This document shows, one piece after another, positions 54,429 to 55,182 of a DNA stretch of 64,000 bases (its first letter is position 1; each line of letters begins with the position of its first letter). The position numbers and the translations under genes were made by a program. The notes beneath the pieces are model-generated. The model made no database searches and was not told the DNA's origin. It saw only the letters and a list, made by a program, of their open reading frames with translations. The stretch comes from Escherichia phage PMBT57. The stretch is taken from the sequence record MG770228.1; one strand, written 5' to 3'.

Positions 54429-54653
54429 ATGAAAGTAAATGTTTTACGCCGTAAGAAAGTTCCTTTCTTTCAAATCAATTGTGGTTCATGTTTTCAACAC
54501 GATGATGACTACTATATGAAGTGTAGTTATCAATCTAAAGAACACTTCTATGGTGTGAATTTACAAACAGGGCATCTGTTCACATTTGATAATAATGACT
54601 TTGTTTATCCTGTTACTTTAGAAGCATGTATTCCTGACCCACTTAATAAATAG
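54429..54653 (+). CDS. hypothetical protein (74 aa)
   Basis: Track ORF; Cys-containing; ends 1 nt before the HNH gene. Confidence 0.45.
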   Translation: MKVNVLRRKKVPFFQINCGSCFQHDDDYYMKCSYQSKEHFYGVNLQTGHLFTFDNNDFVYPVTLEACIPDPLNK

Positions 54654-54654
54654 T

Positions 54655-55011
54655 ATGGCTCAAGAAAAGAATCGTCGTCAGACACTTATCGAACGTATTC
54701 AGGCCAGAATCAAATTACAGGACTTAGGCTATACCGTTAATGGTCAGCCTAGTCTCTGTCACATCTGGACTGGTTCACATTCAGGTAATGGACGTGGTGG
54801 GCAATATGGCAGGATTTCCGTGAATGGAGTTACCTCTGCAACTCACATTATTGCCTATACCCATTATCATGGTTATATCCCCAATAAGATGCAAGTAGAC
54901 CATCTCTGTAATAATCGTCTGTGCTGTAACCCTGAACATCTTGAATTGGTTACTCACCAAGAGAACCAGAGAAGAAGGGCTAAGCGTTCTAAATCTAAAG
55001 GAAATAAATAA
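54655..55011 (+). CDS. HNH endonuclease
   Basis: Cys/His-rich core with QVDHLCNNRLCCNPEHLELVTHQENQRR (His, Asn, His spacing typical of HNH) and an upstream CHIW...H motif. Confidence 0.75.
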   Translation: MAQEKNRRQTLIERIQARIKLQDLGYTVNGQPSLCHIWTGSHSGNGRGGQYGRISVNGVTSATHIIAYTHYHGYIPNKMQVDHLCNNRLCCNPEHLELVTHQENQRRRAKRSKSKGNK

Positions 55012-55182
55012 ATGATTAAAAAACTTATTTGTAAACTTATTGCAGCAATCTTAATTAGTATTATTGGTATTGCATGGGTAATTTCTACTCCAGATAACGT
55101 TATGCAACAAATTTATTATGCTGTGTATACATCAACCTCTTTTGTTTGGGTTTATGTAATGTACCGTATTTGTAGCGACTAA
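55012..55182 (+). CDS. small membrane protein (56 aa)
   Basis: ATG immediately after the HNH stop; two hydrophobic helices; below the track cutoff. Confidence 0.4.
   Translation: MIKKLICKLIAAILISIIGIAWVISTPDNVMQQIYYAVYTSTSFVWVYVMYRICSD

Follow-up and report, generated by a model that had tools for sequence, protein, structure and literature searches.

The N4-like phage gene gp22 encodes a predicted homing-type nuclease that is an old, conserved resident of its lineage rather than a recent insertion

The DNA analyzed here is a stretch of 64,000 nucleotides from Escherichia phage PMBT57 (MG770228.1; hereafter the window), which represents an Enquatrovirus, an N4-type coliphage, and is 98-99% identical to phage N4. 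Our subject is a run of three plus-strand open reading frames (ORFs) encoding proteins of 74, 118, and 56 amino acids (aa), with spacers of 1 nt between the first two and 0 nt between the second and third. They are N4 gp21, gp22 (“endonuclease”), and gp23, which lie between gp20 and gp24 in the N4 RefSeq record, and the order in the window matches N4 gp20-gp24 (Table 1). An earlier note on this DNA had described a 118-aa HNH protein between a 74-aa ORF and a 56-aa membrane ORF, directly after a terminator and before a MoxR gene, and this layout is confirmed at 54429-55182. The note had further suggested a possible insertion of a free-standing homing endonuclease, since such genes can mark recent insertion points. 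Our analysis leads to a different view, in which gp22 is an old, strongly conserved resident of its lineage rather than a recent mobile insertion and, at the scale of the family, is an accessory gene with a mobile past, having been acquired, lost, or moved elsewhere as a unit the size of a gene.

The terminator is an intrinsic-terminator-like hairpin (AAACCCACC-ATTAC-GGTGGGTTT) at 54373-54395, 7 nt past the stop codon of the gp20 SPFH lipoprotein gene, followed by ATTTTTT. It sits between gp18-gp20 and gp21-gp23, and a terminator is annotated at the homologous place in phage Jura. On the downstream side, gp24 is labelled MoxR-like in related records, and the gp24-type ATPase is a signature gene of the Schitoviridae (PMC7650795). 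The endonuclease gene is already known. The window protein is identical to N4 gp22 (YP_950500.1; phrog_1872) at 118/118 residues, its neighbors gp20, gp21, gp23, and gp24 are alike in the two phages with no difference found, and annotations have called its product a putative homing or HNH endonuclease from 2009 at the latest, when “N4 gp22, putative homing endonuclease” was listed (Zhao et al., 2009; PMC2784036). The record of AlfredRasser, a BASEL phage, carries the same label, and the homing-endonuclease idea in the earlier note is an existing annotation-level guess.

The age of gp22 in this lineage is apparent from its close relatives. A megablast search with positions 53500-56300 returned 15 Enquatrovirus genomes, including N4, SPSP, AL25, Jura, AlfredRasser, and the BEU phages, each aligning over the full query at 97.8-99.4% nucleotide identity as one gap-free block of 2.8 kb. 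All 15 records encode the same gp22 protein (100% identity) and none has flanking indels, so that comparison of the same locus among close relatives, which the earlier note had proposed as a check, gave universal conservation without flanking variation within the genus and speaks against the proposed insertion. The composition of the gene, another check proposed, is genome-typical: its GC content (0.421), its GC content at third codon positions (0.347), and its codon adaptation index (0.635) all fall within one standard deviation of the 37 long ORFs of the window (0.420±0.015, 0.357±0.059, and 0.685±0.063, respectively).

Divergence was compared using the orthologues in Shigella phage Moo19 and Klebsiella phage KP8, with gp16, gp17, gp18, gp20, gp24, gp25, and gp26 as comparison genes. 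Synonymous sites are saturated alike, with proportions of synonymous differences of 0.57-0.79 in gp22 and 0.56-0.74 in the comparison genes, while the nonsynonymous distance (dN) is 0.08-0.11 in gp22 compared to 0.18-0.37 in gp16, gp17, gp18, gp24, gp25, and gp26 and 0.13 in gp20. Nonsynonymous change in gp22 is thus 2-4 times below that of every comparison gene except gp20, and the ratio of dN to the synonymous distance (dS), at 0.05-0.08, is the lowest of the compared genes, with gp20 second at 0.09, these ratios being approximate since dS is saturated and the distance estimates noisy for so short a gene. At the protein level, gp22 is 83-90% identical to its Moo19 and KP8 orthologues and the gp24 ATPase is 62-63% identical. 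A dS as saturated as that of the flanks combined with a low dN means that gp22 has been diverging for as long as its neighbors but under stronger purifying selection. The signs of a recent arrival, which are an odd composition and a dS below that of the flanks, are both absent. Descent of gp22 within the Enquatrovirinae has been vertical since before Enquatrovirus, Moovirus, and Kaypoctavirus split, as these computations show, and the gene is more constrained than the neighboring RNA polymerase, ATPase, and dCTP deaminase genes. Synonymous diversity (piS) of gp22 within the genus is 0.024, which is low but in the range of gp18, gp19, and gp25 (gp20, gp21, and gp24 are at 0.06-0.08). A selective sweep or gene conversion was considered for this low value, and the signal is not diagnostic as gp18, gp19, and gp25 are equally low.

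The protein has the hallmarks of a small nuclease. The clear HNH core reported by the earlier note stands, with a match to Pfam HNH_3 (PF13392) at E 8.6e-20 and 70.6 bits (cut-off 24.8), and gp22 also just passes the cut-off of 27 for zf-His_Me_endon at 28.8 bits. Pfam recognizes no further domain in the 118 residues, and in particular a DNA-binding module of the AP2, NUMOD, or IENR1 type was not found; in NCBIfam no family matched gp21, gp22, or gp23. Among 66 aligned homologues, the most distant at 44% identity, 14 columns do not vary (C35, W38, G44, G48, Y51, H64, G73, D82, H83, C85, C90, N92, H95, and L96), and R7, R8, R53, N104, and others are at least 90% conserved. The AlphaFold (AF2) model built from this alignment (mean predicted local distance difference test score 92.6, predicted template modeling score 0.82) consists of an N-terminal helix, beta-hairpins, and a beta-beta-alpha unit at residues 79-116, the beta-beta-alpha-metal fold of His-Me-finger nucleases. 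Its best matches among solved structures are I-HmuI and I-PpoI, which places this free-standing gene product in the homing-endonuclease structural class, and to that extent the earlier note was right. A phmmer search of gp22 against the Protein Data Bank (PDB) gave nothing but chance kringle matches.

The comparison with I-PpoI, the His-Cys-box enzyme of a Physarum rDNA intron (PDB 1A73, 1CYQ), is informative at the level of single residues. When the gp22 profile was run against PDB sequences, vDHlCnnrlCcnpeHL...N aligned with SHLCHNTRCHNPLHL...N of I-PpoI, the spacing from His to Cys (+2), Cys (+7), His (+12), and Asn (+21) being identical, so that H83, C85, C90, H95, and N104 of gp22 correspond to H98, C100, C105, H110, and N119 of I-PpoI. 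In I-PpoI, H98 is the general base, N119 is a metal ligand, and C41, C100, C105, and H110 bind zinc. By analogy, H83 (codon at 54901-54903) is the predicted general base of gp22 and N104 its predicted catalytic metal ligand, and C85, C90, and H95 are predicted structural zinc ligands for which C35, presumably equivalent to C41 of I-PpoI, would be the fourth. The first zinc site of the His-Cys-box family (Cys, Cys, Cys, His) is thus present in gp22 with invariant ligands. The gp22 C-terminus (QRRRAKRSKSKGNK) has no Cys or His beyond H101, hence gp22 lacks the second zinc site and the C-terminal dimer-swapping tail of I-PpoI, and it is a free-standing phage gene product of 118 aa whereas I-PpoI is intron-encoded and has 163 aa. 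The predicted fold and active-site spacing also fit I-HmuI, an HNH_3 nicking homing endonuclease of the Bacillus phage SPO1 (PDB 1U3E), but the latter is intron-encoded, has 174 aa, and carries extra C-terminal DNA-binding modules, whereas gp22 comprises only the core plus the N-terminal helix, together with a Cys/His zinc cluster. Computationally, gp22 is therefore an intact minimal His-Me-finger nuclease, and it is presumably active. As a separate observation, when the gp22 profile was compared with a library of 1.84 billion proteins, many top-scoring entries (P0118 and P0120-P0124 among them) proved to be 250-610 aa long and to carry the domain in 2-6 copies arranged in tandem.

Across the family, gp22 occupies a recurrent position. 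Its orthologue lies between gp17, the decoration protein gene, and gp24 in N4, Moo19, Jgk1, and KP8 (Enquatrovirinae), Axy04 (Rothmandenesvirinae), Frozen (Erskinevirinae), Pokken, RiverRider, CB3 and Nepra (Cbunavirus), and Littlefix, as well as in nine of the ten gp22-positive IMG/VR loci. The gp17-gp24 interval therefore holds gp22 in more than 10 lineages, with genera sampled from at least four subfamilies. These orthologues score 152-199 bits against the family profile compared to 35-46 bits for other HNH_3 genes in the same phages. In the four HNH-positive Enquatrovirinae lineages gp22 is the sole gene of the interval that is common to all and its surroundings turn over. The start and stop codons of gp22 often overlap those of its neighbors, as expected of an integrated operon gene. 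A conserved downstream partner was sought and rejected, the neighbors varying by lineage. Three orthologues escape the existing annotation: those of Axy04 and Nepra are unannotated in RefSeq and that of PYO2 is hidden under mis-called overlapping ORFs, and all three score 176-192 bits.

Presence is nevertheless patchy at the family level. By tblastn, strong gp22 matches (E ≤ 1e-25, always one per genome) occur in 221 phage records and a gp24-like ATPase in 668, some of the latter being non-N4-like myoviruses, and gp22 is thus found in about a third of genomes family-wide, as counted in a redundant phage database. Of 32 sampled IMG/VR loci with both gp16 and gp24, 10 had a gp22 orthologue within 10 kb. 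The gene is absent from G7C, which shares subfamily and host with N4, and from Salmonella phage SP-076, Vibrio phage VBP47, and Ruegeria phage V13 (RpoP-V13), with absence in some loci judged within the fetched flanks and whole-genome tblastn in agreement for the G7C-like phages. A divergent copy in G7C, VBP47, SP-076, and RpoP-V13 was sought with a profile hidden Markov model and rejected, as just other HNH_3 genes at 35-46 bits were returned. The variable presence among relatives that the earlier note anticipated therefore holds across the family and fails within the genus. Presence/absence polymorphism among close collinear genomes was seen neither in Enquatrovirus nor among Litunavirus-type records, where 71 of 75 have the whole region without indels, a partial record and Luzseptimavirus genomes being among the other four. 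It was seen between genera only, that is between Litunavirus and Luzseptimavirus and between Enquatrovirus and Gamaleyavirus.

Evidence for past mobility comes from position, from one indel, and from sequence identities. In Litunavirus gp22 is relocated to a site directly upstream of rIIA, and in roseophage DSS3phi2 it follows rIIB. Where Litunavirus PYO2 has 383 bp with the HNH ORF, the sister genus Luzseptimavirus (Ka4) has 90 bp; the flanks are shared, with homology picking up again on either side at a common CCAAGGAGTAA-CC-ATG junction, which makes this a gene-sized indel. Shallow gp22 identities agree with those of core genes (Moo19-Jgk1 97%, KP8-uv19 97%, Pokken-RiverRider 85%, CB3-uv36 96%), and gp22 trees agree with the genomes within the Enquatrovirinae, the Pokken/RiverRider pair, and Cbunavirus. 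Deeper comparisons are discordant: gp22 of PYO2 and Littlefix is 69-74% identical to that of Axy04, Pokken, RiverRider, uv21, and uv30 although their core genes share just 32-34%, whereas between the window and uv24 gp22 (50%) does no better than the core (52%). Over all pairs the Spearman correlation between gp22 and core identities is 0.24, a value based on p-distances of a 118-aa protein rather than on reconciled trees, and GC content offers no explanation. A gp22 homologue with 51% identity is also present in an unrelated 39-kb Vibrio phage. We conclude that gp22 has been transferred laterally as a single gene, but not recently in the lineage of the window.

What a recent insertion looks like in this genus is illustrated by phage Jura, which carries an extra 169-aa gene with HNH_3 and AP2 domains (Jura_0050) between the RNA polymerase genes RNAP1 and RNAP2. 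It is found in one of the 15 Enquatrovirus records; the window and the other 14 lack it, and the empty site in the window is an 11-nt gap between the end of gp15 (50686) and the start of gp16 (50698). Its nearest relatives (77%) lie at the same junction in N4-like coliphages of another group (UE-M3, UE-S5a, and UE-M6), and a 59% relative lies at this junction in Burkholderia phage HN03, so that the gene is sporadic in close relatives yet recurs at the RNAP1/RNAP2 junction in distant genera. Jura_0050 is a textbook sporadic homing gene and the model of a recent insertion in the genus, and gp22 is unlike it. Jura_0050 and G7C gp24.1 resemble gp22 in being free-standing HNH_3 genes of the Schitoviridae; they differ in carrying an AP2 domain, which gp22 lacks, and in lying at junctions of conserved genes. 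G7C gp24.1 scores 44 bits against the gp22 profile, compared to 152-199 for the orthologues, and G7C gp15.1 carries a NUMOD1 domain. Separately, a second HNH_3 gene directly follows the ATPase gene in G7C (gp24.1, between gp24 and gp25) and VBP47 and directly follows gp25 in Nepra (gp44), the genera being unrelated, which suggests a homing hot spot around gp24-gp25 in the Schitoviridae. The gp24/gp25 junction of the window holds a 59-aa ORF alone.

An insertion of all three ORFs together does not agree with how the flanking genes are distributed. gp21 matches phrog_7431 at 2.2e-24 and is 97-100% identical in the 15 Enquatrovirus records, and none was found outside Enquatrovirus by tblastn or in a search of 5.8 billion proteins; its PHROG relatives are remote, zf-UBP matches below threshold, and in phage Jgk1 the ORF that immediately precedes the HNH gene resembles it weakly (36%). 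gp23 matches phrog_23946 at 3.9e-37, and its homologues are limited to Enquatrovirus and the KP8-like Klebsiella phages (Kaypoctavirus; 46-53% identity). gp23 is strongly hydrophobic (maximum Kyte-Doolittle mean over 19 residues 2.62), and its KP8 homologue is annotated with two transmembrane helices. Within the genus, nonsynonymous diversity (piN) is far below piS in gp21 and gp22 and 9-fold below in gp23, the latter on five segregating sites, and such low values mean that gp21 and gp23 are real genes and not chance ORFs. With GC contents of 0.32 and 0.30, compared to 0.42±0.015 in the long ORFs, gp21 and gp23 are the compositional outliers of the locus, unlike gp22. The idea of gp21-gp22-gp23 as one cassette was rejected, as their distributions differ, with gp22 spread family-wide, and gp21 and gp23 are AT-rich whereas gp22 is not. 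gp21 and gp23 are separate lineage-restricted accessory genes, not the arms of a mobile cassette.

We now propose, with a probability that we put at about 0.6, that gp22 of the window is an old, vertically kept homing-type nuclease, not a recent arrival, that is accessory family-wide and whose role we infer from its relatives. The core would function in the manner of I-PpoI and I-HmuI, with H83 acting as the general base and N104, together with D82, holding the catalytic divalent metal, while C35, C85, C90, and H95 would hold a structural zinc. The N-terminal helix, a beta-hairpin, and the basic C-terminal helix would contact the DNA, leading to Mg2+-dependent nicking or cleavage of a specific target. 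Most likely the target is DNA of co-infecting relatives without gp22, or other non-self DNA, and the benefit may lie in homing, in marker exclusion, or in interference competition. We hypothesize that selection retains gp22 as cutting or nicking a specific target still pays. gp21-gp23 would be expressed together, as one closely linked unit that follows the gp20 terminator and lies in the rightward middle-gene region, a placement taken from the biology of N4 (PMC4496689). A retained homing-type nuclease is favored over other roles on three grounds: homing enzymes are the closest structural kin of gp22, the family as a whole can do without the gene, and lateral spread has occurred.

Several points weigh against this proposal. 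Long-term purifying selection and fixation within genera are unlike the cycle of invasion, decay, and loss of a purely selfish homing gene, and such strong constraint and fixation fit a function that benefits the phage equally well or better. gp22 is without the AP2 or NUMOD module of the sporadic HNH genes and hence its site specificity is not assured, and homing into G7C-like genomes is implausible at ~65% nucleotide identity. The sequence match of the gp22 profile to I-PpoI is marginal (E 0.06), and the deep discordance of gp22 with the core genes is possibly inflated by rate variation or a shared amino-acid bias. The activity, target, and phenotype of gp22 are all deduced: our literature search found no functional study on the function, essentiality, or expression of gp22, neither “phage N4” nor “Schitoviridae” occurs in the CRISPRi-ART paper, and gp22 goes unmentioned in papers on the N4-like core genome.

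A bolder version of the proposal, which we regard as possible but doubtful, sees gp22 as a domesticated homing-type nuclease, maintained over hundreds of millions of phage generations and more constrained than RNA polymerase and ATPase, that does a fitness-relevant job, either as a weapon against competing phages without gp22 or in processing the phage's own DNA, and that has also been passed between distant Schitoviridae as a useful single-gene module. To a similar degree tentative is a domesticated housekeeping nuclease that nicks or resolves replication or recombination intermediates or processes genome ends, which would explain a constraint above that of the polymerase and ATPase genes. 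The local minimum in dN/dS, the fixation of gp22 in well-sampled genera, its place in operons with overlapping start and stop codons, the invariance of all catalytic residues, and the company of nucleotide-metabolism, DNA polymerase, and rII genes in Litunavirus and roseophages are all consistent with housekeeping. Such a role sits poorly with the loss or lack of gp22 in about two thirds of the Schitoviridae, including G7C, and with its mobile history as seen in the discordant deep phylogeny and the gene-sized indel; moreover, gp22 is no signature gene of the family (PMC7650795) and so is not part of the conserved replication or packaging machinery.

The remaining explanations have far lower standing. 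A recent free-standing homing-endonuclease insertion that marks a new site, maybe with both tiny ORFs, could draw on the fold class of this free-standing HNH protein, on the variable accessory interval just past a terminator, and on the patchiness of the gene family, but it is very improbable given identical gp22 and indel-free flanks in 15/15 Enquatrovirus records, a dS to the sister genera as saturated as that of the flanks, normal GC content and codon use, the occupation of the same interval in more than 10 lineages, the different and narrower distributions of gp21 and gp23, and the Jura HNH-AP2 gene as an example of a real insertion. Even less probable is a catalytically dead DNA binder or regulator on a His-Me-finger fold, as exemplified by the SMAD MH1 and NFI DNA-binding domains, which share this fold with gp22. 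Those domains also carry a Cys3His zinc site. They have lost the catalytic residues, whereas the 66 gp22 homologues all retain H83, D82, and N92, and at least 90% of them N104, and nuclease structures outscore MH1 and NFI as matches to gp22. Least probable of all is a terminase-associated HNH protein, similar to HK97 gp74, that aids genome cutting in packaging. The similar size (~118 aa) and stand-alone HNH architecture agree with it, but gp22 does not adjoin terminase or portal genes and lies in the rightward middle-gene region between RNAPII and the replication genes, it belongs to Pfam HNH_3 and not to HNH (PF01844), and many family members with the same packaging lack it. A packaging role was rejected on location and fold scores.

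The discovery value of these results is small, and they come with a caution, namely that a small free-standing HNH gene in an N4-like phage need not be a recent mobile insertion, gp22 being fixed within genera and the best conserved of the proteins in its surroundings; the truly sporadic homing genes of these phages are the HNH-AP2 genes at the RNAP1/RNAP2 and gp24/gp25 junctions. What is modestly interesting is that the conservation of a homing-type HNH gene exceeds that of the surrounding core genes. Why strong selection should act on a homing-type nuclease can be studied conveniently with gp22, a protein of 118 aa from a classical E. coli phage with close relatives, such as G7C, that are naturally without it.

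Table 1. Features at the gp22 locus of the window and related features in other phages (locus handles with coordinates in the respective locus)
Feature	Genome or locus	Coordinates	Strand	Evidence or remark
gp18-gp20, accessory, exclusion-type cluster	window	52942-54366	+
N4 gp20, SPFH/Band-7 lipoprotein, upstream boundary	window	53530-54366	+	Pfam Band_7 1.7e-23; phrog_200
Intrinsic-terminator-like hairpin plus T-run	window	54373-54403	+	9 stem pairs, 5 G-C
N4 gp21, 74 aa, Cys/His-rich	window	54429-54653	+	CxxC at residues 18-21; phrog_7431
N4 gp22, 118 aa, predicted stand-alone His-Me-finger (HNH_3) endonuclease	window	54655-55011	+	Pfam HNH_3
N4 gp23, 56 aa, small membrane protein with two hydrophobic segments	window	55012-55182	+	phrog_23946; hydrophobicity
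N4 gp24, AAA (MoxR-like) ATPase, downstream boundary	window	55212-56270	+	weak Pfam AAA_5 and AAA matches
59-aa ORF	window	56257-56436	+	phrog_19202, 2.1e-33
gp25, DUF2201 putative metallopeptidase with VWA-like domain	window	56438-57580	+	Pfam 1.3e-86 and 1.4e-46
gp22 orthologue	Axy04, L005	4983-5321
gp22 orthologue	PYO2, L006	16251-16595
gp22 orthologue	Nepra, L014	14010-14333
phrog_7508 membrane protein (gp33)	Moo19, L002	4345-4515
phrog_7508 membrane protein (gp030)	KP8, L003	5537-5728
phrog_7508 membrane protein	Jgk1, L017	9345-9530
phrog_7508 membrane protein (gp33)	Frozen, L007	8333-8521
phrog_7508 membrane protein (gp17.1)	G7C, L004	6269-6457
Jura_0050, HNH_3 and AP2	Jura, L103	671-1180
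gp24.1, second HNH_3 gene	G7C, L004	8057-8533
Second HNH_3 gene	VBP47, L010	4575-5057
gp44, second HNH_3 gene	Nepra, L014	17240-17707

Several features of the neighborhood deserve mention in their own right. Moo19, KP8, Jgk1, and Frozen encode, directly 3' of their HNH gene, a ~60-aa single-pass membrane protein with the conserved C-terminal motif CE..L.R.Q.CV..FVPEKK (phrog_7508). G7C has the gene for this protein as the first after gp17, which puts the G7C breakpoint right where the HNH block that it lacks would end on the 3' side. Neither N4 nor the window has this membrane protein gene. In the cluster just upstream of the terminator, gp18 is a superinfection-exclusion protein resembling P22 gp17 (PF17420, 2.4e-56) and gp19 is a small membrane protein (phrog_1130, ‘moron/host takeover’); Moo19 also has gp18-gp20, which are absent from KP8 and G7C.

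Downstream of gp22, the 59-aa ORF overlaps the end of gp24 and stops just before gp25. It is unannotated in N4 RefSeq (NC_008720) and annotated in AlfredRasser, VEc25, and 3HA13. The phrog match and a homologue (56%) in Achromobacter phage Axy04 mark it as a genuine, conserved small gene. The product of the next gene, gp25, has homologues in ten of the loci (L001, L003, L005, L007, L009, L010, L011, L012, L014, and L015) and is named “HNH endonuclease” in many RefSeq records of Schitoviridae, a propagated mis-annotation that inflates the HNH counts there.

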